From the NCBI GenBank assembly GCA_000002435.2, contig CM018791.1: DNA of 64,000 bases. One strand, written 5' to 3'. This document shows positions 1,179 through 29,047 of the stretch, piece by piece. Under the pieces are notes generated by a model, which did not search any database, was not told the origin of the DNA, and worked only from the letters and a program-made list of their open reading frames with translations. Origin of the DNA: Giardia intestinalis. Lineage: Eukaryota. The position numbers and the translations under genes were made by a program. Position 1 is the stretch's first letter, and every line of letters begins with the position of its first letter.

Positions 1179-3065
1179 ATGGGAAAGGGAACCACGCCTA
1201 AAACGTCCCAAATAGGCTCGGCTGCCGCCAGCCGAGTTACTCCTTCGTCCATGAAGATCTCTCACACAAATATAAAGAGTAAAGCGCAGACCCCGACCTC
1301 GTCCATGACCAAATCTTTGAACAGCACAGGTCAGCGCATTAAGGGGATGGTCAAGTCCCTCTTTGGCACTAAACCTCTCATCCAGGAGGATATGGAGCCC
1401 TCAGGGTCTTCTTCGGAGATGATTCCCTTGCCAACCAAGCCTATACCTGGCAAATCCCAGAGTTCGCAGACAAGTCACACTCCTAGGAGATCAACAAGGC
1501 AGTCCGATGACAAGTCTTCCACGCGTGAGACTGGACCTGCGCCCGTGACCGCTAGTAGCCCCGATGCACAGCAAGCAGAGACCCTCTTTCCTGCGGCGAT
1601 CGCCACGCTTGCCACCATGGCCAACGCAGCACTCGCGCAGGCCCTCACGAACCCTCAGGCGTCTGCAGCCCTGACATCATCACTTATTTCGTCTCAAGGT
1701 CTCTCTACACGGGACTTAGCACTAACGACCTCAAATTTACAGCCGCCTCAACCTAGTATCGAGTACCCAGCCTCCTTTGGGGCTAATTACAATTCCCTAA
1801 GCAAATCTGTGACACAGCCACCTCCGTCTATTAATCAGCCATCTCTGCATCCATCGGCCGCGCCTACAGAGCAAGAGTATGTTATTTTTCCTGCGTCAAT
1901 CATAAACATGTACATGGCCATGAGAAATAAGGGAACAGATGTGGCACAGAGCTCCGTACAGCACGTGAGACCAGCGATGGCAAACTCTTTACCGGTACAG
2001 CAAGCTACAGAGTCTTTTGTGTCCACGAAGCGCACGGTCCACTTTGAGGCTCCATCAAAGGATACAGTTGGCCTCTCCAATTCGACGGGGTCTATAATCC
2101 AAGGAAGCGCCCTTGAGATATCAGCAGGGGCTGCGGAGAAGGAGCCAGCTCCTAAGAAAGTCATCATACGTGAAGATCCCAAGCCCGTGGAGCCTCCAAA
2201 GCAGGATACTAGTGTCGCTGACGCAAAACCAGCTGTTCCCGATCAACCCAAGAATGAACCTTCGAAGCCGACTGGTACGTTTTTGTTTGGAAAGGCAGAT
2301 TTTAGTGTAACCAGTTCAGCTTCAACAGCTAAAGATGGGCAACCGCCCTTAGCTGATTCTGCTTCTACATCCAACACTCAGAACAAGGCTGTTACTTATT
2401 CATTTAAATTTGGAAGCACCTCTGAGGATACGAAGAGCAATACATCCTCTAATCCGCCGGGGCCTGATTCCGATTTGAAGAAGGAGGAGACTGCAACTGG
2501 AGATAGCGCTGCATTCAAATTATCGCAAACAGACAATGTCCCGAAACCTCCATCGAAAGGTTTTGTCTTTGGTGCCCCAGTAGCGCCTGCACAGCAACCA
2601 CCGCCTCCTTCAACTCAGCTAACCACAAAGCAAGAGCAGCCTCCAGAGCAAAAGAAGGATCACCCGGTCTTCTCATTCGGGTCTATGTCTGCATCGACTA
2701 CACAAGGGTTTGGATTTAAACCCCCGGCAGATGAGCCCAAATCGACACCAGTCGCACCTACTGCAGGCTTCTCCTTCACTGCCCCCCAGACGGGCGCTAA
2801 ACAGACAGGTGCGTTTTCCTTCCAGGTATCTACCCCTCCTGTGCAATTTGGAGCGACAGGAAGTAACGCCGCATCATCTACCCAGCCCGGTTTTAGTGGC
2901 TTTGGTGGGTTTGGCGGCGGCTCCTCTAGTCAGTCCGTCTTTGGTGCGGGCGTGTCTCCATTTGGTACACAACCTTCAACGACCGACGGGGCCTCGGGAC
3001 CTCAGGCAGGATCCTTCGGCTCCTTCACCTTCTCTAATCCGTCAATCAAACCGCAGCTCTCTTAA
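1179..3065 (+). CDS. FG-repeat protein, nucleoporin-like (FxFG/GFG/SFG repeats in an S/T/P/Q-rich disordered protein)
   Basis: 628-aa ORF whose ATG is preceded by caaataagaaagcagaagATG. The C-terminal half carries FLFGK, FKFGSTS, GFVFGAP, FSFGSMS, QGFGFKPP, GFSFTAP, GAFSFQVS, GFSGFGGFGGGSS, SVFGAG, SPFGTQPS and GSFGSFTFSNPS separated by polar spacers. This is the classic FG-Nup architecture. Confidence 0.65.
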   Translation: MGKGTTPKTSQIGSAAASRVTPSSMKISHTNIKSKAQTPTSSMTKSLNSTGQRIKGMVKSLFGTKPLIQEDMEPSGSSSEMIPLPTKPIPGKSQSSQTSHTPRRSTRQSDDKSSTRETGPAPVTASSPDAQQAETLFPAAIATLATMANAALAQALTNPQASAALTSSLISSQGLSTRDLALTTSNLQPPQPSIEYPASFGANYNSLSKSVTQPPPSINQPSLHPSAAPTEQEYVIFPASIINMYMAMRNKGTDVAQSSVQHVRPAMANSLPVQQATESFVSTKRTVHFEAPSKDTVGLSNSTGSIIQGSALEISAGAAEKEPAPKKVIIREDPKPVEPPKQDTSVADAKPAVPDQPKNEPSKPTGTFLFGKADFSVTSSASTAKDGQPPLADSASTSNTQNKAVTYSFKFGSTSEDTKSNTSSNPPGPDSDLKKEETATGDSAAFKLSQTDNVPKPPSKGFVFGAPVAPAQQPPPPSTQLTTKQEQPPEQKKDHPVFSFGSMSASTTQGFGFKPPADEPKSTPVAPTAGFSFTAPQTGAKQTGAFSFQVSTPPVQFGATGSNAASSTQPGFSGFGGFGGGSSSQSVFGAGVSPFGTQPSTTDGASGPQAGSFGSFTFSNPSIKPQLS

Positions 3066-3074
3066 GGCGCTTAG

Positions 3075-3707
3075 TTAAGGACGACACACTGGTGGGCTAT
3101 ACTGCTCATGAATGCCTTTGTAAAGGGAAAAAAGCTTACAAAGGAAGTGCTTTTCACTTCTATCAGAATCTTTGGGGTCTCCGGATGTTTCTACGATGCG
3201 GTTAGTGAAAAAGCGCTCTAAGTTCACGTTGTAGCGGGCGCTATAGCAGTGTGCTTGACAAAGCATATCTATCTTATCGATAACGTGGGCTGCACGCGCA
3301 AGCGGAGAGTGAGCATCTTCATACATTGTAAACAGCTCTTTATAGAGTGCTCCCATGCGATGGAGACCAGAGTTGCAGAGGAGTAGTACCAGTTCTCTCA
3401 TAGCTGAAGCCTCTTGCATACGCTTTTCGGCGGCAGAGACCTTGCTCAGAGACTCGGGAATAATGTCACCGACGATAGACTCAGCCAAGTCGTGAAGGAG
3501 CATCATACAAACAAGACGTGTGCGCCTCTGCGGATCTAAGCTCACTGAGGAATCGAGGGCTACACAGGCCGTGGCGTAGCTGTGGTCAGCGACAGACTCA
3601 ACACAGCCAATTTCGGGATGGAGTGTCCAGCCAGTTCGTGGCAGGCAGCAGAGCCGATCCAGTAAAGCGTAAAAAGCCAAAAACGACTGCACACGGGAGG
3701 AGAGCAT
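3075..3707 (-). CDS. HD-domain phosphohydrolase, HDDC2/YfbR-like (5'-deoxynucleotidase family)
   Basis: Motifs PRTGW...PESVADHSYATACVAL and HDLAESIVGDIIP match the H...HD...D metal-binding signature of HDDC2. The ATG at 3707 is preceded by gttaagaaATG. Its stop lies 9 bp from the stop of the convergent FG-repeat gene. Confidence 0.8.
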   Translation of the reverse strand: MLSSRVQSFLAFYALLDRLCCLPRTGWTLHPEIGCVESVADHSYATACVALDSSVSLDPQRRTRLVCMMLLHDLAESIVGDIIPESLSKVSAAEKRMQEASAMRELVLLLCNSGLHRMGALYKELFTMYEDAHSPLARAAHVIDKIDMLCQAHCYSARYNVNLERFFTNRIVETSGDPKDSDRSEKHFLCKLFSLYKGIHEQYSPPVCRP

Positions 3708-3746
3708 TTCTTAACAGGCTCTGCCTGATTTGGTTTACTCCCTCGT

Positions 3747-6700
3747 TCAGCAGCGAGCTGCCTTTAAGAATTGTCTGTATATGTTACTCGTACGCACAAA
3801 CGTTATGGAGTGCATGCTATAAAGGTAAGCTTCTAAAAGCCTTGCTCGTTCCCTAATAAACTCCGGCTTCCAGCCGCCCAAAGCGTAAGGCCTGTCGGGT
3901 GGGATGTCAGGCAAAGTCGCTGCAGGATAGGCCGCAGAGATTGCCGCGTGAAGCTCCTTGACCTCCGAAAAGCGGCAGCTTATGTGGAGCCTCCTGCCGT
4001 CCATGCCCAGCTCAATGTAGTAACTAATGAAGGGTCGCGACCCAGAAATAATAACAGTGCGGTGGCTCAACACCTTGACATAGAAACTGGAGCATGACGA
4101 GGTGTCGACGAACAGGGATACATGTCTGCCGCTATCCCTATGCTTGTTGCTTCTAACTATGGACGATGCAGCTCCATGGCCACTCCTTCTAATTGCACTC
4201 AGTGTCTGCACAGACGGATCATACTCAACAGAATCGGATTCTCTCTCTAGTTGAGCCTCGATGTTGTGCCGTAAAGCCTGAAGCTCCTTGTCGCGCCTTT
4301 CACGAAGGCGAATCTCACGCATCAGCTCTCTATCCAAAAGAAGGCCACTATTAGTTGTGTCTATCGCAGAAGACGTCGTAGAGTTGGACTCTATCTGCGA
4401 ATTGACAGCGAAGCGTTTCCTCTCTGCCTCAAGTTTTTGGTACTCACGGTCAGCTTTGCGATTGGCCCGTTCAATCTCCTTGTCCATCCGCAACTTCTCT
4501 TCGGCTAAAAGACGCCGCAGCTCTTTCTCTTCCTGCCGTTTCTTCTGCTCCTCAATCTTTCGAAGTTGCTCTTCACGCAATTTCTCTGCCACGGCGATGT
4601 CTTCGCTGTGAGAGGACTCTGTTAGAGATGATACGGTTGTAGACGTCTCGCGCTCCATAGGCTCCTTCTTGTCCTTCTGCTGCTTCTTAGCAATCTTCTT
4701 ATCTGCACGACGCGTCTCGGTAGTGGATTTGATGGTGGAGTGGGGCTTAGACGAAGAAGTGTCTCCGTTAATCTTCTGTGGCTTTTCTGCTGGTGCGTCT
4801 TTAGTTTCCTTAATGAGGTCGGGCTTCTTCTTGATTGCGCTAGTCTTCTTTTTGTCTGCTTCATGCTTCGGTTCCTTCTCAGGCTTCTCAAGCTTCTTCT
4901 CCTTCTTCTGCTTGGCAGCATGATGCTTTTCCTTGGCATGTTCATCCCTCTGATGCTCCGCTTTATGCTTGGTATGTGATTTGGGAAGATGCTTTGGTGG
5001 AGTGTGTAGTTCTACAACAGGTGTATTCAGCCTATCAACATACAGGCTATCACTATCCTCATTATCGACGACCAAACTTATCGCAGGAGTATCAAGCCTG
5101 GATACAACCAAAGAGTCCTCCTGCACTTCTTGTTCTGTACGTAGAGCTGCATGGCCTGTCTCGTCCTCAAGCCCTTGAGGCTCTTCCTCTTGGCAGTATA
5201 GGTCCTCCTCGGCCTGGCGCAGCATCTCCTCCTCTTCACGTCGCGCCTGCTCAAGCATCTCTGCCTCTTTGCGAGCCATTTCAATATCAAATTCATCCAG
5301 CGTCTCTTCCGGAAGCTGAAGTACCCCTTCCGGTGTAGGCTCATATTCTTGTTCGTGGACCGACACCTGCTGTTCAATATAAGGCTCTTCTTGGCATACA
5401 TCAGAAGATTGTGCTAGCCCAAACGACCCATCGAGAACGTCAGGAGTTGCGACACGATCAACAACCAAATCCTCAGAAGGCAATAGCAGGCTCTCTGGCC
5501 CATGCGAGTCAGGTGGGGCAAAGTCGTCCGGAGTACTATCACAAGGAGTGACCTGACGATGGACCGAGCTTGCACAGCTATGTTCCTCTAGGGCTGGCTG
5601 TCCCCATTGAGATATCTCGCTTTTGAGTTCATCAATAAGGTCACTGTCTTGTATTCTCTCGAATGAATCCGATTCAGTCTTGTTAGAAATGTGCTCCAGA
5701 GGTGGAGCTGTCTCCATATCAGGCAAGCTCTCCAGGTCCTTGATCTCAGGGGTGTGTACTACCGCATCCTCAATGATAGCCTCCGCCTCACGAATGCTTC
5801 GTTCTGTCTCCGGGTCTGTTTGCAGTCTGGAAACAACATCCTCAGATACGTACTCATCAGCGTTGGAGAAGCTTCGCAAAAGCTCTACCTCCTGACTGCA
5901 TTGCGGTTCCTCGCTCAGGACCTGCTGTAAAGACTCGTCACAAGGTAGAGCCATGCTTATCTCCTCGCGGCTCTCAATAGGTACTAGCTGTTGTGGTTGT
6001 ATGTCCCTGAAGACTCTGTCCGCTCCAACAGCTGCGCGCAAACGCAGAATCTGATCTATGACCAGCATCTTCCTGACTCTGCGGAGATGCTCGAGCAGAG
6101 CTGCTGAGTCTTCTGCTTGAGCGGGGTCGACGACCTCTGGCCCTTGAGCAAAGGCTGTCTGAGGACTGGGGTCAATGGGGACTGAATCAGAAGGCGTAGG
6201 TACCCTGGAGACGCATATCGGAACGGCTGAGATGTCATTGTCTGAGAACGGCATAACTGGAGTCACATCAGAAAAGGCAGCCAAATCTGGGGCAGGTGCC
6301 TCACTAATTGCGGCAGGCGTCGATGGCGCATCATCAAAGCCAAAGAAGCCGAAAGCATCATTAGGCTCGATAGCGTCGGGGACCTCAGCGGCGCCATCCG
6401 CAAGGTTAGCCCCAAAGCCGAACATTTCATCCGGCTGCTCTGCAGGAGGGTCATTGGTGTTTGTTGGTTCGAGCATGTATTGTGGCTGGACATCATCGTT
6501 GTCGGGATTCTCGGGCCTAGGGGCCTCATCCTTACAGGTGTCCACGGGCTGGTCTTGTGGCTCATCATCAATAGGCCCTGCCTCCAATTTGGGTTCGTCG
6601 TTGTGCAGTTCCTGAGGATCATTGTAAGCATTATCTTCTGGCAAGCCATAGGCATATGCGTATGGGTTGGAACCATCACCGGCCACGTAAGGGGCGCCAT

Positions 6701-6824
6701 AGTAGTCCATGTCCGCGGCCATTGCGTAGGGGTTCTGGTGGTCACCAGTGGTCTCGTCCTGGCTCGTCCCGTAGTCCCCCCATCCATAGGCTTGGTATCC
6801 GCCCTGCTCCTGATCACCGTCCAT
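3747..6824 (-). CDS. PX-domain protein with an acidic N-terminal region bearing (D/E)MFGF and DAFGFFGFDD motifs, long coiled-coil and Lys-rich segments, and a C-terminal PX domain
   Basis: C-terminal PX signature CRFSEVKELHAAISAAYPAATLPDIPPDRPYALGGWKPEFIRERARLLEAYL (R-F-S-E ... LP ... P ... RR..LE.YL). The track start at 6881 is GTG (plus cac). I place the start at the first ATG, 6824, behind cttaaaaaaATGg. QPDEMFGFGANL and NDAFGFFGFDDAP motifs lie at about 6331-6427. Confidence 0.8.
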   Translation of the reverse strand: MDGDQEQGGYQAYGWGDYGTSQDETTGDHQNPYAMAADMDYYGAPYVAGDGSNPYAYAYGLPEDNAYNDPQELHNDEPKLEAGPIDDEPQDQPVDTCKDEAPRPENPDNDDVQPQYMLEPTNTNDPPAEQPDEMFGFGANLADGAAEVPDAIEPNDAFGFFGFDDAPSTPAAISEAPAPDLAAFSDVTPVMPFSDNDISAVPICVSRVPTPSDSVPIDPSPQTAFAQGPEVVDPAQAEDSAALLEHLRRVRKMLVIDQILRLRAAVGADRVFRDIQPQQLVPIESREEISMALPCDESLQQVLSEEPQCSQEVELLRSFSNADEYVSEDVVSRLQTDPETERSIREAEAIIEDAVVHTPEIKDLESLPDMETAPPLEHISNKTESDSFERIQDSDLIDELKSEISQWGQPALEEHSCASSVHRQVTPCDSTPDDFAPPDSHGPESLLLPSEDLVVDRVATPDVLDGSFGLAQSSDVCQEEPYIEQQVSVHEQEYEPTPEGVLQLPEETLDEFDIEMARKEAEMLEQARREEEEMLRQAEEDLYCQEEEPQGLEDETGHAALRTEQEVQEDSLVVSRLDTPAISLVVDNEDSDSLYVDRLNTPVVELHTPPKHLPKSHTKHKAEHQRDEHAKEKHHAAKQKKEKKLEKPEKEPKHEADKKKTSAIKKKPDLIKETKDAPAEKPQKINGDTSSSKPHSTIKSTTETRRADKKIAKKQQKDKKEPMERETSTTVSSLTESSHSEDIAVAEKLREEQLRKIEEQKKRQEEKELRRLLAEEKLRMDKEIERANRKADREYQKLEAERKRFAVNSQIESNSTTSSAIDTTNSGLLLDRELMREIRLRERRDKELQALRHNIEAQLERESDSVEYDPSVQTLSAIRRSGHGAASSIVRSNKHRDSGRHVSLFVDTSSCSSFYVKVLSHRTVIISGSRPFISYYIELGMDGRRLHISCRFSEVKELHAAISAAYPAATLPDIPPDRPYALGGWKPEFIRERARLLEAYLYSMHSITFVRTSNIYRQFLKAARC

Positions 6825-6973
6825 TTTTTTAAGATACAGAGGCAAAAGGCATCGAGGGGCGGCACTGCGGTCGTGTTTCACTTATTTTCCCCCGGCTGTG
6901 CGGATTCCTCTGTGGCAGCCACGCTACACTAGAGTATTCTTTAACAGTCCACAGGACTCCATGTGGGAAAAAA

Positions 6974-19547: not shown

Positions 19548-21347
19548 ATGTCTAATAGGTTTACCACCCAGACGGTGTTGGACTCCGTCCTCAAGAGCCG
19601 GGGCCTGTCCAGCTCAGACACGGAAATGCATGAACTCCCTGCTAGGTGGTCAGCAGTGGCGTCACACCTGTCTTCTTTTTTGCAGTGCGAAAATAACCCG
19701 CTGGAGTGCTACACAGCGATGTATGAGGCGGTCATAAGCCAGCCATGTCTCTCCTTCGAGCAGGACTGCCAGTGTGGGTCGTGCTCAGAGCGCGTGACGG
19801 AGTTCTTCCATTTGGGACCTTGTTCTCACAAGCTCTGTAAAGCCTGCCTCAGAAAGATGTTTGACCAACTCAATGATGAATGTCTGGTCTGCAATGAACC
19901 TATTAGAGAGCTCGCCTTCTGCAAACAGCCTGGCTCCATGCCTCCTCCACCGGCGCTTGTGCCGCCGCCTCTTGCTCTTCCTACCAAGGCCACCCCTGCC
20001 CCTGCACCCGCCTGCGAAGAGTGCCCTGTCTTTGCTTCTATTCTTAAAAAGAATGGTCTGCCACCAGACACGTCCGGAATTGTCCATGGATACAAGAAAA
20101 TCAAACAGATTAATTTACTGGAAGATGACTACATATCGTCTCCTCCTACGGGACAGACCCTTATTCCGGAGGAGGACTTGATATACCTCAGGGACTATAT
20201 GAAGTTTCAGTTCCTACACTTCTTCGAGGAAGTCGATGCCAGCGAGACTATCTTTTGCGCATGGAAGGGCGGCGACGCGGCTGAGCACCAACTCGAGTGT
20301 CCTCTCCGCGAAGATACGTGCAAGAATAAGGCACTTGGTTGCAGCTTTATGCAGCCATACATCATTGTAGCGTATCACGGGATAAACTGCGAGAATATAT
20401 GCCTCTACGAAAGTCAGCCGTGCCCTCTATGCAATAAGACAGTACTGAACAAGGACATGTACACCCATGAGGTCACTTGCTCTAAGAAGCTCATAGAAGA
20501 GCATAAGGAGAAGGTCAAGTCTTCGCAGAAAGAGTACATCGCTGGGGCTCAAGCTACTTTCGCTGCTGAGGCCTCCAAGGAAAACTCTCCTATGAAGAGC
20601 GCGTCTCCCAACAATCCGAATAGCAATCCAAGCATCGTCTCTCCTGAGAACAGGTCCGATGATGACATCAAGGGTATCACGATTAGGGATGCCTGCGAAA
20701 ACATGAACGTGCTGGGAGAGATGTATTGCGACCTTGTGACAGCTGCTCGCCCAGATATATACTCTAGCACCTCCAGCGCTGTCAACTCTTCTACTGACGT
20801 AAGGGGAAGCAGGGAGCTTTTACGCGATCCAACGGAGATTGTTGTGATAGGGCCTGCTGAGCTCTCACCTGAACAGGTCAAAGACATAAAAAGAACCAAG
20901 TCTCCCAAGTCTCCGAAGAGGTCTGGTGCATCGGAAAAGAACGATAACTCGAGGAAAGAAAGGAAGGGAACATCAGAGGCGCGTGTCTTATCTTACGAGG
21001 TCTGCTCCACTGGGTCTGGCCATCCGTTTGTGGTCTACAAGATCGAGCTCCCAAGCCAGGACGGCGGAGAGAGCGTAGTCATCCATAAGCGAATGAAGGA
21101 GATCAAGGCGTTCCACAAGCGCCTGCAGCGCAACTTTCCAAGTATCACGCTGCCCAAGCTTCCGCAGGACAGGCCTTGGGCACTCGGAGGGAACAAGCTT
21201 AAGTTTGTTCAGGAGCGCTCCAGACTTTTGGAGGCATATTGTGGAGACATCAATCACAATGCGATGATATATAAATCGAGGATTTATAAAGACTATATTA
21301 ACGAGCAATGCGCTTATGTGCCGATCACTTATGCTCTTAAAGAGTAG
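19548..21347 (+). CDS. RING-finger + TRAF-type zinc-finger + C-terminal PX-domain protein
   Basis: RING-like CQCGSCSERV...GPCSHKLCKACL...CLVCNEPI (about 19764-19908). TRAF-ZnF-like CPLREDTCKNKALGCSF...INCENICLYESQPCPLCNKTV...HEVTC. PX domain YKIELPS...KRMKEIKAFHKRLQRNFPSITLPKLPQDRPWALGGNKLKFVQERSRLLEAYC. ATG behind taagtaaaactttATG. Confidence 0.8.
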   Translation: MSNRFTTQTVLDSVLKSRGLSSSDTEMHELPARWSAVASHLSSFLQCENNPLECYTAMYEAVISQPCLSFEQDCQCGSCSERVTEFFHLGPCSHKLCKACLRKMFDQLNDECLVCNEPIRELAFCKQPGSMPPPPALVPPPLALPTKATPAPAPACEECPVFASILKKNGLPPDTSGIVHGYKKIKQINLLEDDYISSPPTGQTLIPEEDLIYLRDYMKFQFLHFFEEVDASETIFCAWKGGDAAEHQLECPLREDTCKNKALGCSFMQPYIIVAYHGINCENICLYESQPCPLCNKTVLNKDMYTHEVTCSKKLIEEHKEKVKSSQKEYIAGAQATFAAEASKENSPMKSASPNNPNSNPSIVSPENRSDDDIKGITIRDACENMNVLGEMYCDLVTAARPDIYSSTSSAVNSSTDVRGSRELLRDPTEIVVIGPAELSPEQVKDIKRTKSPKSPKRSGASEKNDNSRKERKGTSEARVLSYEVCSTGSGHPFVVYKIELPSQDGGESVVIHKRMKEIKAFHKRLQRNFPSITLPKLPQDRPWALGGNKLKFVQERSRLLEAYCGDINHNAMIYKSRIYKDYINEQCAYVPITYALKE

Positions 21348-21426: not shown

Positions 21427-23535
21427 ATGGAGGAGTTTTTTGGGTTTTCAGACGCGCCGGTTGCTCCTGGCCACGTCTCCGAGGAGGCTCTGTTCTTTGG
21501 CTTTGATGACGCCTCCGCTAACCAGCCGCAGCCCCCCGTCTCCATTCCATTTCCAGTTATCAACCAAGTCGCGACCATCCCAAGGTTTCAGGAGTTCCAA
21601 GAGTTCCAGGAGTATGACTCGCCAGAGCTTCGGGCAGCCAGGCAACCCAAGTTCCTGGATCCAGCACTATTTGTGGGCCCTGGGAGAGAGGACGTCATTC
21701 ATGATGTGGTGATAGATGAGGCAAAGTACGACTTCGGCTACGACCTTGACTACCTGCGAGAAACCACAGATGAGATGAAGACCGAAGAGGACGAGGAGGA
21801 CATAATAAGTAGGCTTCCCTACGGCTTTTCCTCCAACTACACATACAAGGACGATATGGCAGATCTTATGCGTAGCAGCCCTGTGAAAGACATTGTTCTC
21901 CCCCGGGTTGGTGTCACTGTAGAGTGCTCCGACAGTGACATGGAAGCAGAATTCAACCGTCTGCAAGCTATAGACTTCAACGAGAAGCGCAAGGACATAG
22001 AACAGATGCTTCGCATTCGTAGAGAGCAGGAGCACCAGAGAAGGCAAGAGGAAGAGCAAGAACGACTGCGGCAAGAGGCCCTTAAAGCTCAGAGCTCAGT
22101 TCCATCCCGGATCCCCTCTATTCCGGCCGCCGCCCCATCTGCCACTATTGCCTCTGATAGAGCAGTCGGACCTGCTGCCGTTCCAAGCCTTCCTCCCCTG
22201 TCTCAGCCAATGGTTGACGTTGCTCCGCAGCCAGAGCCCCAGCCAATTATGGATCTCCTGATAGCTCCAAAGGCAGTGGAGGCGGTGTATGCCCCGTTAC
22301 AAGCTACCCCTGTACAGCCTATCCATACCCAATCTTCCATTTTAGTGCCATCAGCTCCACCAGCGGCTACTCTGGCCCCTCAAGTATGCTCTATTGAGCA
22401 ACCTCCCTCAGAGGATCCTCAGCTAGAGGAAATGTTCGGATTCCAGTCACAACCCGATATTAGTTACTCCCCAGAAGTCAAGGATCTAGATAAGATAGAG
22501 CCAGACTTGACCGCAGATCCTGCCACAAATCCGGTTATCGTGGACCAGCCTGTCTCAAAGTCGTGGAGCGCAAGAGGATCGATACAGCAGCAGCTAGACA
22601 ATCTACAGAGCGAAATAAAGCAACTAGAGCAAGACTCCATGTTTTCTAAAGAAGATAGAAAGCGGAGCAGACACGCAGAAGCCCGTAAATATCTCGAAAC
22701 CAGAACATATACAGACAACTACGACGTTTTCAGACCGTCGCACCATCTACAGAAGTACTATGCAGCGAAGAAGCCAAAACCAAAGCCAAAGGAAACCATT
22801 TATTCCCCATACTCAGAGACGGAGCTATCGAACCAGCGCATGCAAGTGCGAGCAGAGCTGGAGGCTCAGAAGCACAAAGAGCAGCGGGAGCGCAACTACT
22901 ACGAGAAAATTGAGATCAAAAGGCTAACAGCCATGTACTCCAAGCTCGAATCTGAATTAACCGTCAAAGCCATCAGTGAGGAGCTTGCACAAGAAAAACG
23001 TCAGGAATTTGAAAAGTACTTCAAGAGCGCGTCCCTCCTTGAAAAGAGCTCTGACATGTACACCAGCACACACGATGATAAGACCATACGCATACAGGTA
23101 TCTGAGCATAACGCTTTGCATCTCCCCCGGTCCCTCTTCTTCACCCCTGATGGGAAGTATAAAAACTACGTTAGATACCTGGACTATAGGAAGGTTTTCG
23201 ACCGCTTCACGCACACGCAGGTCCTTATGTTCATATTCGCGGTGTCCTCGCAGGAGCGAAAGTTGAAGTGCATTTCCAAGACTTACGAGGACTTTCATGT
23301 CCTTCACAAGGAGCTTGTGGGGGCCTTCGGGTACTCAGCAGTACCTGGGCTTCCCTCCTTCCGATCCATGAACATGGGTGGCGGTAGACATGAGGTCATT
23401 CATGACACTCAAAAGAGACTAACCAAGTACCTGACTGAAATCAACAACGTCCAGGCTCTGCGCACATCCGCCATCTACAGGAGCTTCCTCAAGCACCAGG
23501 ACCTCAACTTTTTCCAGGGGATGCATCGCCACTAG
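21427..23535 (+). CDS. PX-domain protein with N-terminal acidic FFGF motifs (MEEFFGFSDAP, LFFGFDDAS, EEMFGFQSQPD) and a central coiled coil
   Basis: C-terminal PX-like segment KTYEDFHVLHKELVGAFGYSAVPGLPSFRSM...QKRLTKYLTEI. ATG behind tttaaaaacaatcgccATG. Second gene of a head-to-tail run of three. Confidence 0.8.
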   Translation: MEEFFGFSDAPVAPGHVSEEALFFGFDDASANQPQPPVSIPFPVINQVATIPRFQEFQEFQEYDSPELRAARQPKFLDPALFVGPGREDVIHDVVIDEAKYDFGYDLDYLRETTDEMKTEEDEEDIISRLPYGFSSNYTYKDDMADLMRSSPVKDIVLPRVGVTVECSDSDMEAEFNRLQAIDFNEKRKDIEQMLRIRREQEHQRRQEEEQERLRQEALKAQSSVPSRIPSIPAAAPSATIASDRAVGPAAVPSLPPLSQPMVDVAPQPEPQPIMDLLIAPKAVEAVYAPLQATPVQPIHTQSSILVPSAPPAATLAPQVCSIEQPPSEDPQLEEMFGFQSQPDISYSPEVKDLDKIEPDLTADPATNPVIVDQPVSKSWSARGSIQQQLDNLQSEIKQLEQDSMFSKEDRKRSRHAEARKYLETRTYTDNYDVFRPSHHLQKYYAAKKPKPKPKETIYSPYSETELSNQRMQVRAELEAQKHKEQRERNYYEKIEIKRLTAMYSKLESELTVKAISEELAQEKRQEFEKYFKSASLLEKSSDMYTSTHDDKTIRIQVSEHNALHLPRSLFFTPDGKYKNYVRYLDYRKVFDRFTHTQVLMFIFAVSSQERKLKCISKTYEDFHVLHKELVGAFGYSAVPGLPSFRSMNMGGGRHEVIHDTQKRLTKYLTEINNVQALRTSAIYRSFLKHQDLNFFQGMHRH

Positions 23536-23611: not shown

Positions 23612-26600
23612 ATGGAGGACATTGCCTACACCGACGGATACGCTGCGCAGTACGGAGATAATTATGCATATGATGGGTATGGCTATGGTGGTGACCTGGC
23701 TGTGGGAGATTACAATCCGTACGGAACGGACTATGGTTATGATGCAGGAGGCTACGACTATGGTGCCGGGTACGGTGGGTATGGGAATCAAGAGACTGGA
23801 TATGGCGATCAGACATATGGATATGGTGAGCCTGCTGAGCAACCGCAAGACAGTTTATCGCTTAAGCTGGACGAGCCGAAGCCGTTTACTGAGCAAGACG
23901 ATGGGAGGTCCCTCGTCGTCCGTACTGATGCGGCGTCTGTGTCCATGGATCCTTTTAGTGCGCCCATAGATACAGTGACAGAGCCCATAGGTTCACAGAC
24001 GCACACGAGCTCCGCTTTTCCACCTGTCTCTCAGGACTTGCTGAACTCTATCAGGGTCCAGCAAGAGACTAGTGGAAACCTGAGTAAGTCTCCAAGCAAA
24101 ATCTCAAGCAGGCCTGCCTCTGCTAGACTTGACGAGCTTGATAAGGTAATCGAAGAAGATGCAGAACAGCTTAATAGGGAGGCCAAAACAGATACTCACG
24201 TTACTGGTGCTGCCCCCGATACTAGCGATATGTTTGGCTTTACTGACCAACCGGCGGCACCAACAGCTACCGAAGAGCCTGTCGCAACTGCTGGTGACGA
24301 CATGTTTGGATTTGGGCTAGAAAGTGACGCGCACGATGCAACGGTTCAGCCCCCAGTTGAAGATGCAGGGCCTGCTCTACCTGATAAAGAAGCTCCCTCC
24401 ACTGAGGCCGAAGACGATATGTTTGGCTTCGCCACATCTCCTCAGGAGACCATAGCCAGCCCTCCAGCAGGCTCCACCGCCCCTGCTGCTGAGCCTGTTG
24501 ACGACATGTTTGGCTTCACCGATCCTGCCGTCGAATCAGCGGCTACTGCAGAGCCAGGAACAATGGAGGGCGATGATATGTTTGGATTTGGCCCCTCAGA
24601 AAGCACACCTAAAGATCCTGACACTGATGCATCTGCAGTAGCTAAGGATGTAACGGTGGACGCTCAAGATGCTGCCGATGATATGTTCGGTTTTGATGGA
24701 GCGGGCTCCCCTGCAGAGGCTCCTGCACAATCAACCGAAGCAGTAGCAAGCCCAGTTGCTGACTTGGAGACGGACAGCATGTTTGGCTTTGATTCTCCGC
24801 CAGCCCCAGCAGATAATACTACTACTGTGCCTGTGGATGATTCGGCGGATGACCTGTTCGGATTTGGGCCTTCCACTTTAGATGCACAAGGTGAGCCCGC
24901 CCAAGATGCTCAGCCAGATATTCAAGATGTGGCACAAGTCTCCGCTGACAGCATGTTTGGCTTTGACTTGCCAGCTGATGCCTCGGCAACTGTGGAGCCA
25001 TCAACTACCGGCCTTGCTACTGAGAAGCCAGAGGATTCTCCTGTCGATGACATGTTCGGCTTTTCTCCAAACGAAGCAGCAGCTACAGCCAAGTCAGATG
25101 AGGATCAAGAGATAACGCCGGTGAACACCAAGACTTTAGACGAACCATTGTCAGTAGCAAATGATTACACCCAACCAACAGCTGGGCCCTCAGATGACAT
25201 GTTCGGCTTTGGAAACAGCGCAGATCTTCCTCAAACAGATTCTGTACCCCACTCTGGAGCCACGGCTGATAGCATGTTTGGATTTGACTCTGTACCAGCA
25301 ACAGGGGCCTCGGTAGAACCACCAACAGAGACGCCAGAGCTTCACGACGCATCTCAGACACAACCTACTTTGGACATGCCAACAATTCCAGAGCACATCC
25401 CAACTATAGAGGATAACCAAACGGACCTGTCACATGAGAGTCAAAATGAGAGTCAAGTTGCAAGTGAAGAGTCTGATCAGCTAAGAGAGACCAATGAGAC
25501 GCTGGAAGGAGAGGAAATGAATAAGGAACTGGCACAAGAGCCCGCTGTAGAGGATATGTTTGGCTTTGGGGATGCATCAGCGCCAGTGGAGGATTCCTCA
25601 ACAGAAAAGGCCACTGAAAGCCACCCAACTGAGCCACCTAATTTAGCAGATCTTCCACCTCCTGTGTCTGCATCATCACTGCTTCCCGTGCAGACACTTG
25701 AGTCTGCGAAGCAATCCGCAAGAGCTGCAACTACCCCAGTGGCCGATATGGCCATTGATATAGATTCTATGATCTCGGCTGCACTAGTTCCACAGCAACC
25801 CTCCCCCGCTCCTGAACAGAAGGTCGAGGACCAAGTTCTTGACGAATCCTCGCCTAACGTGATAACTGCAGAGCTTCCTCCCATTGTTGTGAAGGGATCT
25901 TTAGAAGAGGCCAACGACAAGTCTGCCGCAGAGTCGCAACATGAACCAGTAGAGCTCTCGGAGGACCGTGACCTCAGTAAAGATATCGAGCTGGTTGCTC
26001 AAGATCCTCTACCGGCCGAGGAGGATACGCAGGATATTTTTGTTGAGCCAGCTGTGCCAGTTGAAGCTCTAGAAAGGTTGGCGATCAGCGAAACGTTCAT
26101 CAAGCTCCAGGAGGAGCTTCAATTTACATACCTGATGCCAGAGCCTAACCGCGAAGAACTAGACAAGCTCCAGATGACTGATCATGAGCAGCAGCTTATT
26201 CAACTTAAGGACGAAGCGGAGCGGCTACAGAGAGAGAATAAGGTGCTCGCAGGCAGAAGTGCGGCTCCCAGGCATCTCCACCCTAACGAGTTTGATAGCA
26301 AATCTATCTCAGTTAGCTTCTTCGAGGGTCTTCTGAATGAGCCCACCCACAGTGATGGCATATCCCTAACGACTGGGGAAGAGCTTCGGCTCTTGGCGAT
26401 TCTGGAGCAGGGAGACTACGAAGCACTTGATGCTCTTCACGGCATGTCTCCAGAGGAGCTTCAGTTAATGGAGCAACGAGAACGCGAGTTCAATTTGAAG
26501 CTCAAGGAACTCACCGACCGCCGAGACGAGCTGTTGTACAAGGATGATACGGAGGCTTTAAAACTCATTGAGGAAGAGATCTGGGCCTTTGTAGACGCTG

Positions 26601-29047
26601 AGGAAGAAAAGAAAATGCGCATCCAAGCGGCAGACGACCTTTTGAAAAAGCGTGCTCAGGAGGAAGAGGACCGACGTCGTGCTGAGATAGAAGCAAAGAT
26701 CAAGGAGGAGCAGGATCGTGTTGCAGAGGAGCGCCGACTCCAGGAAGAGATGATAGCGCTCCAAAAGAAGCAGCAGCAAGAGTATGCAGAGCAGGAGACT
26801 AGGAAAGCAGATCTTCTCCGTGAGGCCATGGAAAAGGAGCAACTAGAGCGAATTGAGGAGGAGCAGCGCATAAAAGCAGAGGCACGACGACGCCTAATCG
26901 ACGATCTGGAGGCCACAGCTGAACGCGCAGCCGCCGAGGACCGGATACGGGTTAAGGCTGAGTTGGAAGAAATGGCCAGGATCAAAAAGGAACTGGAGGA
27001 GGCTGCCCGGACGGCCAGCGAAGAGAAGCGAAAGCTTCTTCTACAACAGAAGGAGCAATTGGAAAGAGAAATGGCCGAGACAGCAAGACGACACGAGGAA
27101 GACGTGGCGCGTAGGCACAAGGAGCTGCAAACTCTTCATGAGGAGCGGCGGAAGATGCGCGAACAACGCTTAGCCAGCTCAGAACCGATGGATGAGCTTC
27201 TTCGCGAAGATGGCAACGATGCCTCTGCCGATCCGTTCTCATATGCGTCTCTGGACATTGAGCGCAGAATCAGGGAAATGAAAGCCCAGTTAGAGAAGGA
27301 GATGACCGAAAAGATGGCCCTAGAGCACGCTGACCTCAATGCTCTAGAGCAGGAGTTGGCTGCTAAGAAGCTGTCGACCTTACAAGCAGAACGACTCTTA
27401 AGCACGGCTGCAAGCGATACAGTGGCACGGCTCGATAACGAGGATCGTCTCTTTAACGAAGCAATGGATGCCAAGCGCCAGGAGCTGCTTCTTTTGAAAG
27501 AACAGTATGGACTCGTGCGTCACCAGAACGAAAGTCAGCGCGCCTTGCACCTAGAGGAGCAGAGAAAGGCTAAGAAGTTAGCGAGGTTAGTCGAACAAGT
27601 TGCCGAGCTAGCCGAGAAGAAGCACAATTTAGAAAGAAAGATTGCCCATGGAAACAAAGAGTTTCACAAGAAAGAGAGCAAGCTGGTGGCTTCTAACAGC
27701 AAAGGCGCACTCAAAGCGTTGAGAAAGGAGCACGCTAAGGAGCACGAGGCGTTGGAGACGCAGCTCTCTAGCGTCTCAGAGCAGTTACGCAGAGCAAAGA
27801 AGCAGCTCAAGGTACTTAACCCCCAGGGAGAGACTTCTGATATGGACCGATCTCTTAGTGTCAAAGACTATTTGCGCTCCACAGATCGGAGTGAGAAAGA
27901 GCAAGAAGTGTCCGCTGCAGATAAGGACCATTCCCAGCCGCGTCTGTCCGTCTTCGAGGGAGGCTCTCTTGGCCAACCTTCGTTGGTAAGCGGCCATGGA
28001 ATTGGAACAGCGATGTCAACAGGTGTGGACCACGGAGATGGAGGGAGAAAGCAACATGCATCCAGTGACTTGCCTGTAGCGCTGCAGAAGCTGAGAGAGG
28101 AGCACGCTCGCAGGCTTGAGAAGATTGAGCAGCGACGAGCAGCCTTTGCTTCGGAAAGGGAGCAGCTTCAAGCCCAGGCACACGCGCTCGAGGCTCAGCT
28201 TTCCAAGCCCGTCAACGTTCCTGATTCTAAGCTACGCACCAGAGAGCAGCGCAAGCAGATCATTTTCGCAGAGATGAATAGAATGGAAAAGCTGTCGAAG
28301 GCACACATGGTTGAAGTTAAGCCTCAGATCCCAGAGAAAACAATCGATGACATTCTTAACGAACGCCGCAAACGACACGGGGAGGAGCGTGAGCAACTAA
28401 AGAACATGGCAGTGCGCTTTACATCTGCGTACGATCGGCATTCCCGGGTCTCTGTTAACATGGACAGCAGCGACGACGAATGGAATGACCTAGCTGCACG
28501 GACCTCCTCACGTTATGCAGATATTTCTGCTAAGCCACGCTCGATGCAGGCGCAGGTCCGCCAATTTGCATCTGATCGGATAGATCCTGCCTTCAATAGC
28601 TACATCGAGGCCCCTGTGCGACCTGGCTATGAGTCCTCTCTCCTCTCGTATGTGAAGGTGAGCTCTGACCCTACTACGTGCCACCCGACCAAGTTTGTGG
28701 CTCGGCTCACTGCACACACCTGGTGCATTGAGCAGAAGAGCAAGCCGTATGTGGTCTATACGTTTACAATCAGCACAGAGAAGGGTGTCTTTGAAGTAGC
28801 GAAGCGCTTCTCTGAGCTGCGTGAGCTGGACAAGGCGCTCCGTCGCGTTTTCCCAACAGTTACTTTGCCCAAGTATCCGTCGTCTATGGGAGGGAAGTTT
28901 ACTGATGAACAACTGGAGGAGCGGAAGCGGCTCCTTGGGCGCTATATGAGCCAGCTGAATCAGATCGCGGTCATTAGAACAAGCCAGGTGTACAAGGAGT
29001 TTATACAGATGAAGGTGAGACACGATATCCTTGTATATCACCGGTGA
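23612..29047 (+). CDS. Large PX-domain protein (1811 aa): acidic disordered region with 13 (D/E)(D/S)(M/L)FGF motifs, about 700 aa of E/R/K-rich coiled coil, and a C-terminal PX domain
   Basis: PX domain YVVYTFTISTEKGVFEVAKRFSELRELDKALRRVFPTVTLPKYPSSMGGKFTDEQLEERKRLLGRYMSQL. ATG behind ttaaaaaaaagtgtctgacggATG. Repeats counted directly (see the repeat feature). Confidence 0.85.
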   Translation: MEDIAYTDGYAAQYGDNYAYDGYGYGGDLAVGDYNPYGTDYGYDAGGYDYGAGYGGYGNQETGYGDQTYGYGEPAEQPQDSLSLKLDEPKPFTEQDDGRSLVVRTDAASVSMDPFSAPIDTVTEPIGSQTHTSSAFPPVSQDLLNSIRVQQETSGNLSKSPSKISSRPASARLDELDKVIEEDAEQLNREAKTDTHVTGAAPDTSDMFGFTDQPAAPTATEEPVATAGDDMFGFGLESDAHDATVQPPVEDAGPALPDKEAPSTEAEDDMFGFATSPQETIASPPAGSTAPAAEPVDDMFGFTDPAVESAATAEPGTMEGDDMFGFGPSESTPKDPDTDASAVAKDVTVDAQDAADDMFGFDGAGSPAEAPAQSTEAVASPVADLETDSMFGFDSPPAPADNTTTVPVDDSADDLFGFGPSTLDAQGEPAQDAQPDIQDVAQVSADSMFGFDLPADASATVEPSTTGLATEKPEDSPVDDMFGFSPNEAAATAKSDEDQEITPVNTKTLDEPLSVANDYTQPTAGPSDDMFGFGNSADLPQTDSVPHSGATADSMFGFDSVPATGASVEPPTETPELHDASQTQPTLDMPTIPEHIPTIEDNQTDLSHESQNESQVASEESDQLRETNETLEGEEMNKELAQEPAVEDMFGFGDASAPVEDSSTEKATESHPTEPPNLADLPPPVSASSLLPVQTLESAKQSARAATTPVADMAIDIDSMISAALVPQQPSPAPEQKVEDQVLDESSPNVITAELPPIVVKGSLEEANDKSAAESQHEPVELSEDRDLSKDIELVAQDPLPAEEDTQDIFVEPAVPVEALERLAISETFIKLQEELQFTYLMPEPNREELDKLQMTDHEQQLIQLKDEAERLQRENKVLAGRSAAPRHLHPNEFDSKSISVSFFEGLLNEPTHSDGISLTTGEELRLLAILEQGDYEALDALHGMSPEELQLMEQREREFNLKLKELTDRRDELLYKDDTEALKLIEEEIWAFVDAEEEKKMRIQAADDLLKKRAQEEEDRRRAEIEAKIKEEQDRVAEERRLQEEMIALQKKQQQEYAEQETRKADLLREAMEKEQLERIEEEQRIKAEARRRLIDDLEATAERAAAEDRIRVKAELEEMARIKKELEEAARTASEEKRKLLLQQKEQLEREMAETARRHEEDVARRHKELQTLHEERRKMREQRLASSEPMDELLREDGNDASADPFSYASLDIERRIREMKAQLEKEMTEKMALEHADLNALEQELAAKKLSTLQAERLLSTAASDTVARLDNEDRLFNEAMDAKRQELLLLKEQYGLVRHQNESQRALHLEEQRKAKKLARLVEQVAELAEKKHNLERKIAHGNKEFHKKESKLVASNSKGALKALRKEHAKEHEALETQLSSVSEQLRRAKKQLKVLNPQGETSDMDRSLSVKDYLRSTDRSEKEQEVSAADKDHSQPRLSVFEGGSLGQPSLVSGHGIGTAMSTGVDHGDGGRKQHASSDLPVALQKLREEHARRLEKIEQRRAAFASEREQLQAQAHALEAQLSKPVNVPDSKLRTREQRKQIIFAEMNRMEKLSKAHMVEVKPQIPEKTIDDILNERRKRHGEEREQLKNMAVRFTSAYDRHSRVSVNMDSSDDEWNDLAARTSSRYADISAKPRSMQAQVRQFASDRIDPAFNSYIEAPVRPGYESSLLSYVKVSSDPTTCHPTKFVARLTAHTWCIEQKSKPYVVYTFTISTEKGVFEVAKRFSELRELDKALRRVFPTVTLPKYPSSMGGKFTDEQLEERKRLLGRYMSQLNQIAVIRTSQVYKEFIQMKVRHDILVYHR
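24227..25567 (+). repeat. Array of 13 in-frame copies of an acidic (D/E)(D/S)(M/L)FGF(T/G/D/A/S) motif, with spacing of about 25-40 aa
   Basis: SDMFGFT, DDMFGFG, DDMFGFA, DDMFGFT, DDMFGFG, DDMFGFD, DSMFGFD, DDLFGFG, DSMFGFD, DDMFGFS, DDMFGFG, DSMFGFD, EDMFGFG. The nucleotide core ga(t/c)ga(t/c)atgtt(t/c)gg(c/a)tt is itself conserved. Spacers are Ala/Pro/Glu/Asp/Ser/Thr-rich. Confidence 0.85.

Follow-up and report, generated by a model that had tools for sequence, protein, structure and literature searches.

The window considered here is a 64,000-nucleotide stretch of the Giardia intestinalis genome (GenBank assembly GCA_000002435.2, contig CM018791.1), in which a complete open reading frame (ORF) of 628 amino acids (aa) plus stop occupies positions 1179..3065 of the + strand, as seen from the ORF list and from its identity to a known gene. 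The ORF corresponds to GL50803_16478 of Giardia duodenalis WB (XP_001710104.1, UniProt A8B320), with 100% identity over the full length, and is labeled "hypothetical protein" in all sources. The region under study, 2278-3050, lies inside this ORF, and the nearest codon phase starts at 2277, which corresponds to aa 367. ATG 1179 is the sole option for the start codon because an in-frame stop is found at 1140-1142 and no ATG occurs between the two. Judged from its sequence, GL50803_16478 is on balance probably a nucleoporin (Nup) of the Phe-Gly (FG) repeat class, of the FxFG type and specific to the genus Giardia, and it is put forward here as a candidate. This reading draws on an enrichment in FG and FxF motifs, a conservation that is selective for Phe, disorder, a bipartite layout of charge and Gly, and orthology and synteny within Giardia.

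The FG domain and its two-part layout

Aa 367-624 contain 11 FG dipeptides and the complete protein contains 13, fewer than the "at least 15" counted in an earlier reading of this DNA, made from the letters without database searches (the sequence-only reading). When the same 258 residues were shuffled 20,000 times, 2.8 ± 1.5 FG dipeptides were obtained and 11 were reached in one shuffle only; the FG enrichment is therefore real and non-random, though the first count was too high. The contexts named in that reading (FxFG, SFG, GFG, and PFG) were all recovered by motif count, namely FxFG four times (FLFG, FKFG, FVFG, and FSFG), GFG three times, SFG twice, and PFG once, together with VFG twice, and no GLFG was counted in GL50803_16478. 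The FG domain contains 25 Phe, with eight F-x-F pairs, and the residue following Phe is Gly, Ser, or Thr in 19 of the 25 cases. Over its 262 aa, Phe accounts for 9.5% of residues vs. 3.7% in the 21 other ORFs of the window, and the aliphatic residues Leu, Ile, Met, and Val for 7.3% vs. 23.4%. Only one Tyr is present and Trp, Cys, and Arg are absent altogether (Trp plus Tyr, 0.4%). The spacers are rich in Ser, Thr, Pro, Gln, and Ala, as had been stated, and also in Gly; Ser, Thr, Asn, Gln, Ala, Gly, and Pro together make up 70%.

The domain is preceded by a Lys/Glu/Pro-rich, highly charged linker (aa 300-366; 2076..2276, +), which joins it to the conserved blocks of the N-terminal half and in which charge peaks for the whole protein, at as many as 16 charged residues in a stretch of 40 aa. 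The same holds in all orthologs of the G. duodenalis group, and the linker is poorly conserved in sequence (19% invariant columns in aa 331-366). The FG domain itself can be divided into two parts. Aa 367-497 (2277..2669, +) form an FxFG sub-domain with charged spacers, in which FLFG, FKFG, FVFG, and single Phe residues follow one another about 34 aa apart; eight Phe and three FG are found there among 13 Lys and 14 Asp/Glu, i.e., 27 charged residues (Gly 5.3%; Asp, Glu, Arg, and Lys, hereafter DERK, 20.6%), and both Phe of each FxFG are invariant across five orthologs. Aa 498-628 (2670..3062, +) form a dense, nearly uncharged tip rich in Gly, Ser, Thr, and Gln, with 17 Phe, eight FG, and seven charged residues (Gly 16.8%, DERK 5.3%). 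Its motifs (FSFG, GFGF, GFSF, AFSF, QFG, GFSGFGGFG, VFG, PFG, and SFGSFTF) place clusters of Phe 7-18 aa apart.

The opposition of Phe and charged residues between aa 367-497 and aa 498-628 is significant (Fisher p = 4e-4), and the same gradient is present in every ortholog of the G. duodenalis group and weaker in that of Giardia muris. Gly anticorrelates with DERK, so that a group II-like block is followed by a group I-like block, in the classification of FG nucleoporins discussed below. The clusters of FG and of charge do not overlap, and the FG-dense part is located at the end away from the conserved region. Regarding the origin of the motifs, a recent repeat expansion was considered and rejected, as only one tandem array exists at the DNA level, a 27-nucleotide array of 3 x TTTGGTGGC at 2892-2918.

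Conservation within Giardia and the N-terminal half

Four more orthologs were retrieved by database search, from assemblage E P15 (84% identity), from assemblage B (70%), and from two other Giardia lineages represented by read-archive assemblies (62% and 57%). A search of 1.84 billion representative proteins with a profile built from the first 340 residues added GMRT_12723 from G. muris (E 2.4e-10, 30% identity). All six Giardia lineages have the ORF uninterrupted and in collinear form, even at this 30% identity. The gene order is also common to G. duodenalis and G. muris: in the window, GL50803_16478 (+) is followed by an HD-domain protein of the HD_3 phosphohydrolase type (3075-3707, −) and then by a PX-domain protein (3747-6881, −), and window positions 1179-6881 are matched by a syntenic stretch of G. 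muris CM016926.1 (L001 8001-12767). GMRT_12723 is therefore a positional ortholog. A PIF1 helicase lies upstream of the syntenic stretch in G. muris.

Of the Phe residues of the FG domain, 84% do not vary between the five sequences other than that of G. muris, as against 8-47% of the spacer residues Ser, Pro, Thr, Gly, Ala, Gln, and Lys (Ala 8%, Thr 24%, Pro 29%, Ser 36%). The Gly of the motif is less constrained; FG counts amount to 11, 10, 10, 8, and 6 across the five sequences, with 8 to 11 FxF pairs. The G. muris protein retains AFSFG, GFVF, GFSFG, VFSFG, GFQFG, GFSFS, and VFGLG. Orthologs devoid of FG motifs, which by the sequence-only reading would have spoken against a nucleoporin, did not turn up: the assemblages of G. 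duodenalis, the two other lineages, and G. muris have retained the Phe positions and the FxF(G) blocks. Since Phe and FxF(G) are conserved and no recent repeat array accounts for them, the motifs are old and have been maintained by selection on Phe.

The N-terminal half had been described as disordered as well and rich in Ser, Thr, and Pro. Its composition agrees with disorder (61% Ser, Thr, Asn, Gln, Ala, Gly, and Pro), and in an AlphaFold2 model built on the five-sequence alignment, a shallow one that limits the prediction, the predicted local distance difference test (pLDDT) score remains below 50 for most of this half and throughout the FG domain; no folded domain is predicted (mean pLDDT 37.9, predicted template modeling score 0.17). 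The description is incomplete. Conservation in this half exceeds that of the FG spacers, the share of invariant columns being 67% in aa 1-100 and 131-200 as against 36% in the FG domain, and helices are predicted, which the model places only at aa 48-62, 131-187, and 239-253 (pLDDT 50-74). Blocks shared with G. muris comprise SSMK.SH, G.R..G...SLF, SS.MI...TK, LFP.A, ALT.SL.SS, E.EYV..P.SI...Y, R.V.F, and TGS.I.

Three helical segments stand out. A conserved basic amphipathic helix, KSLNSTGQRIKGMVKSLF (aa 45-62; 1311..1364, +), covers the modeled helix 48-62 and has the highest hydrophobic moment of the protein (0.52); its pattern G-x-R-x-x-G-x-x-x-SLF is kept in G. muris, and it may serve as an anchoring or membrane-proximal motif. 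The best-conserved block is an Ala/Leu/Thr-rich segment (LFPAAIATLATMANAALAQAL...ALTSSL...DLALTTSNL; aa 131-187; 1569..1739, +) with 67% invariant columns, modeled as helices 131-157, 159-173, and 177-187 at pLDDT 50-57; its LFP.A and ALT.SL.SS motifs are retained in G. muris, and it is likely a protein-protein anchor. That the Ala/Leu-rich helix 136-156 of this segment might span the membrane as an anchor was considered and rejected, the Kyte-Doolittle 19-residue maximum being 1.46, i.e., below the customary cut-off of 1.6, and 1.25 in G. muris. The third segment is short, EQEYVIFPASIINMYMAMRNKGT (aa 231-253; 1869..1937, +), and its helix 239-253 is the most confident element of the model (pLDDT 60-74); the E.EYV..P.SI...Y pattern is invariant, G. 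muris included, which makes it a second candidate anchoring motif.

At the extreme N-terminus, MGKG(T/N)T is invariant across the five sequences of the G. duodenalis group (window 1179-1199) and resembles an N-myristoylation start. Myristoylation of MGKGTT was rejected as a general feature, on account of the Lys after Gly2, which breaks the usual PROSITE-type rule, and of the G. muris protein, which starts with MSRR or, when read from an upstream in-frame ATG, with MRERKIFEMSRR. The P15 ortholog (P0002) is annotated with an eight-residue extension, MFQIREQK, at whose start WB has ACA where P15 has ATG; this is probably not the start that is used.

Comparison with known nucleoporins

The features that FG nucleoporins of yeast, human, and trypanosome have in common are extensive Phe repeats, a small residue flanking Phe, a characteristic spacer composition, Phe about threefold over the proteome mean, and an inverse relation of Gly to charged residues that separates two groups (DeGrasse et al., 2009; PMC2742445). 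All of them are seen in the composition of GL50803_16478, which thus shows a long unfolded domain with Phe-Gly motifs and hydrophilic spacers, Phe raised about threefold, and large residues depleted, in which Phe motifs are conserved (84%) amid fast-diverging spacers (8-47%). In the same study, all recognizable FG-repeat proteins of Trypanosoma brucei were in the nuclear-envelope proteome, which gives a favorable prior for a location at the pore (PMC2742445). FG and charge clusters have moreover been reported to be disjoint in FG nucleoporins, with the FG-dense part away from the anchor and the charged spacer nearer the wall, Nup153 being treated as an FG nucleoporin of reversed polarity (Ando et al., PMC3774778). 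The FG and charge clusters of GL50803_16478 are segregated in this manner, with the FG-dense part distal to the presumptive anchor, and its polarity is that of Nup153 rather than that of Nsp1.

None of the established families is recognized in the protein. The Nup98/Nup145N/Nup116 type, which is marked by GLFG repeats, a GLEBS motif, and an autoproteolytic beta-sandwich domain at the C-terminus, is not indicated, given that there is no GLFG, no Pfam match, and no folded C-terminal domain in the model. As for the Nup62/Nsp1/Nup54/Nup58 type, the FG domain is C-terminal and reaches the stop codon, and no coiled-coil family is matched. No homology to Nup153/Nup1/Nup60 was found with Pfam or PDB sequences, the likeness to these proteins being architectural only. 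A POM121-type protein, with a transmembrane helix at the N-terminus ahead of a C-terminal FG domain, is not suggested either, as the hydropathy maxima of the WB and G. muris proteins given above are below 1.6 and the N-terminus is not hydrophobic, and neither the N-terminal beta-propeller of Nup214/Nup159 nor the C-terminal Ran-binding domain of Nup50/Nup2 is present according to Pfam and the model.

In architecture, GL50803_16478 resembles the basket-type FxFG nucleoporins, i.e., yeast Nup1 and Nup60, vertebrate Nup153, and plant Nup136/Nup1, which have an unfolded N-terminal anchor and a C-terminal FG domain with FxFG/FxF motifs amid charged Lys/Asp/Glu spacers. Nup1 and Nup60 are anchored by short helices or amphipathic segments, not by a large folded domain, and the conserved helices described above would be candidate anchors of the same kind. 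In contrast to these proteins, with which there is no detectable sequence similarity, GL50803_16478 is much shorter and has fewer repeats, and the RanBP2-type zinc fingers of Nup153 are missing from it. By pure analogy, and from the orientation only, a position in the basket like that of Nup1 and Nup153 could be proposed. The bipartite FG domain recalls the central-channel nucleoporins Nsp1/Nup62. In Nsp1, an uncharged cohesive tip lies at a distance from the anchor, next to an FxFG stalk with charged spacers; however, the polarity is reversed, the FG domain of Nsp1 and Nup62 being N-terminal, and GL50803_16478 has no C-terminal coiled-coil anchor (Pfam Nsp1_C). A further parallel is offered by the lineage-specific FG nucleoporins of T. 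brucei, which have no detectable homology to opisthokont nucleoporins, were recognized only by their spacer composition and by Phe repeats with small flanking residues, and fall into Gly-rich/DERK-poor and Gly-poor/DERK-rich classes (PMC2742445). Unlike GL50803_16478, which is known from sequence alone, these were placed at the pore by proteomics and tagging, and several of them have coiled-coil anchors.

The monoclonal antibody mAb414 recognizes FG-repeat nucleoporins and targets FxFG nucleoporins in particular. In the methods and main text of a study of Giardia, mAb414 is among the antibodies used and a nuclear-pore rim pattern is mentioned (Vicente and Cande, PMC4161512). Going by these parts of the article, epitopes of the mAb414 type appear to be present at the Giardia nuclear rim, in which case a Giardia FxFG antigen has to exist; no Giardia FxFG nucleoporin is named in the searched literature.

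If GL50803_16478 is such a nucleoporin, it would be located at the pore and bind transport receptors. The N-terminal ~300 residues would form a mostly unfolded chain whose short conserved helices and linear motifs dock on the pore scaffold or on the membrane surface of the pore. The charged Lys/Glu/Pro linker and the charged-spacer FxFG stretch would, from their composition, make up an extended stalk carrying the uncharged, Gly-rich, Phe-dense C-terminal 130 residues as a tip. By comparison with known FG domains, the Phe side chains of the tip would bind hydrophobic pockets of importin-beta-type receptors and of NTF2-like factors, and the tip may contribute to a cohesive permeability barrier.

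Neighboring PX-domain proteins and rival explanations

Four proteins with a C-terminal PX domain are encoded within 30 kb, three of them adjacent (3747-6881, −; 19548-21347, +; 21427-23535, +; 23612-29047, +), and one of the four also has a RING finger. Acidic FGF motifs, already noted in these paralogs by the sequence-only reading, were confirmed in three of them. The 1044-aa protein (3747-6881) has MFGFG and DAFGFFGFDD, and the 702-aa protein (21427-23535) has EEFFGFSD, ALFFGFDD, and EEMFGFQ. In the third, an 1811-aa protein (23612-29047) with an FGF array at aa 208-650, 18 FG are found, 12 of them in one 260-residue segment, a density equal to that of GL50803_16478. The array consists of 13 copies of [DE][DS][ML]FGF[GDTS], mostly DDMFGF, 24-50 residues apart, in a disordered region with 104 Asp/Glu and eight Lys/Arg (net charge per residue −0.20). 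Beyond this motif region, the protein continues with a long, charged helical stretch and ends in the PX domain. Judged by its sequence, the array looks like a multivalent array of short linear motifs, possibly for binding of clathrin or an adaptor. Giardia PX proteins have been described as clathrin partners at the peripheral vacuoles (PMC4954726, PMC7058353). For the acidic FGF motifs, a role as ligands in endocytosis is more likely than one as repeats that bind karyopherins. While both sets of motifs reach a similar FG density within a disordered region, those of the PX proteins have a fixed FGF after Met or Leu in a strongly acidic context, in proteins ending in a PX domain, whereas the FG domain of GL50803_16478 is net neutral, with Lys but no Arg, and is built of FxFG/GFG units. 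Given this difference of context, the suggested mechanistic link between the two finds no support.

Several observations weigh against a nucleoporin identity for GL50803_16478. A PX protein encoded 20 kb away, which is not a nucleoporin, matches it in FG density, so that FG density alone is not diagnostic, and the 12 FG per 260 aa of that protein imply that Giardia uses FG-containing motifs outside the pore; the "defining architecture of FG-nucleoporins" that had been proposed is thus suggestive only, even if the disorder, the FG richness, and the hydrophilic spacers on which it was based are all present. The FG domain carries no net charge, rather than a positive one. The FG number drops in distant orthologs, to 6 in P0005 and 5 in G. 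muris, with Phe and FxF pairs persisting. No homolog outside Giardia was found with the N-terminal profile among the 1.84 billion representatives, and a full-length profile including G. muris, run on 5.8 billion clusters with E up to 10, again retrieved only Giardia proteins; no tie to any nucleoporin family can therefore be made. Pfam, nucleoporin FG and anchor models included, gave no family at E up to 10, whether the query was the entire protein, either half, or the G. muris ortholog. PDB chain sequences, searched with phmmer and hmmsearch and including whole-pore entries, gave only a chance match to a single-chain variable fragment (scFv) linker (E 7.8). As no family profile or solved nucleoporin sequence matches, membership in a particular nucleoporin family cannot be claimed. 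A folded or coiled-coil anchor, usual in most FG nucleoporins, is not predicted by AlphaFold2 from the shallow alignment, although some accepted FG nucleoporins also have none. Finally, neither localization nor interaction of GL50803_16478 was found in the searched literature, in which no paper names the identifiers GL50803_16478, GL50803_0016478, A8B320, XP_001710104, or GMRT_12723, and its pore role is that of a candidate. The number 16478 was not found as a gene identifier in the supplement text of Neumann 2010, where the digit matches were unrelated; as that text is incomplete, this is weak evidence.

It can be hypothesized instead that GL50803_16478 is a disordered scaffold or adaptor outside the pore, e.g., in a cytoplasmic condensate or in the peripheral-vacuole endocytic system, where its FxF/FG motifs would be ligands for a non-karyopherin partner with an NTF2-like, appendage-type, or clathrin-type domain. 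This is unlikely overall, but a ligand role outside the pore retains appreciable weight: three PX proteins of the window do use FG-containing motifs, one of them in 13 copies, the order of the FG-protein, HD, and PX genes is kept in G. muris, there is neither homology to a nucleoporin family nor a recognizable nucleoporin anchor domain, and the Gly of FG is often lost in distant orthologs with FxF kept. Gene adjacency, however, means little functionally in eukaryotes without operons, and the motif context (net neutral, Lys, no Arg, FxFG/GFG) is unlike that of the PX proteins (−0.20, acidic FGF). The gene was not found in the supplement text of the clathrin/PX interactome, which is weak evidence as that text is limited, and the bipartite layout of Gly and charge is the one described for FG nucleoporins (PMC3774778, PMC2742445). 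A bolder version, in which the protein forms an FG-based selective phase or ligand array outside the nucleus, for instance at peripheral endocytic necks together with the PX FGF proteins, is decidedly improbable. It would mean that, in a cell whose clathrin assemblies are static, a barrier or sorting system based on FG repeats operates outside the nucleus. The same low probability covers a milder variant, in which GL50803_16478 is at the pore, is anchored by short motifs, and is the main mAb414-reactive FxFG nucleoporin; the pore would then be strongly reduced and the protein anchored without a folded domain.

Giardia is rich in lineage-specific, low-complexity cytoskeletal proteins, and GL50803_16478, which is genus-restricted and has no domains, might be a Ser/Thr/Pro-rich structural or cytoskeletal protein of the disc, flagella, or median body, in which FG has no transport role. 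This appears quite unlikely, as Phe conserved amid drifting spacers points to functional ligands and not to bulk composition, and as coiled coils, ankyrin repeats, and other typical Giardia cytoskeletal modules are absent according to Pfam and AlphaFold2; the gene was also not found in the supplement tables of the ventral-disc proteome, weak evidence since their text is incomplete. That the FG enrichment simply follows from the composition of an ORF that is fast-evolving or spurious, and has no function, can be envisaged in that low-complexity ORFs can yield apparent motifs and that a 122-aa ORF overlaps the gene in another frame at 2710-3078. It is nevertheless extremely improbable: the observed FG count was attained in a single one of the 20,000 composition-preserving shuffles, the ORF remains uninterrupted and collinear across six Giardia lineages to 30% identity with conserved synteny, and Phe is conserved far above the neighboring residues, so that the conservation data already contradict this explanation.

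With regard to its interest as a candidate nucleoporin, GL50803_16478 is a new candidate that would be a useful entry point to a poorly catalogued pore, and is unsurprising in principle. Comparative searches have yielded only a handful of Giardia pore components, with candidates for Nup107, Nup155, Nup35, Nup54, Nup98, Rae1, and Sec13 (Neumann et al., PMC2951903), and a separate Nup98-96 homolog has already been described (PMC2742445). Since few components were recovered and the main comparative survey explicitly left out proteins recognizable by FG repeats only (PMC2951903), the Giardia transport barrier is essentially uncatalogued. The general picture would not be changed, as FG nucleoporins are expected in all eukaryotes. 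If confirmed, an FxFG nucleoporin would provide a bait with which the whole Giardia pore could be approached by affinity or proximity proteomics, a marker with which the number and distribution of pores could be followed on the two nuclei and during semi-open mitosis, and a test of the design rules of FG barriers, i.e., a charged stalk plus a cohesive tip, across eukaryotes.

Two further features of the neighborhood may be added. In the PX paralogs, a low-complexity aromatic region of another type is formed by N-termini extremely rich in Tyr, Gly, and Asp, such as GYGYGGDLAVGDYNPYGTDYGYDAGGYDYGAGYGGYGNQETGYGDQTYGYG, located at aa 1-75 of the 1811-aa protein (23612-23830, +) and at aa 30-80 of the 1044-aa protein. 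The stop codons of the FG-protein gene (3063-3065, +) and of the convergent HD-domain gene (3075-3077, −) are separated by nine bases, so that the 3' ends of their transcripts must overlap.

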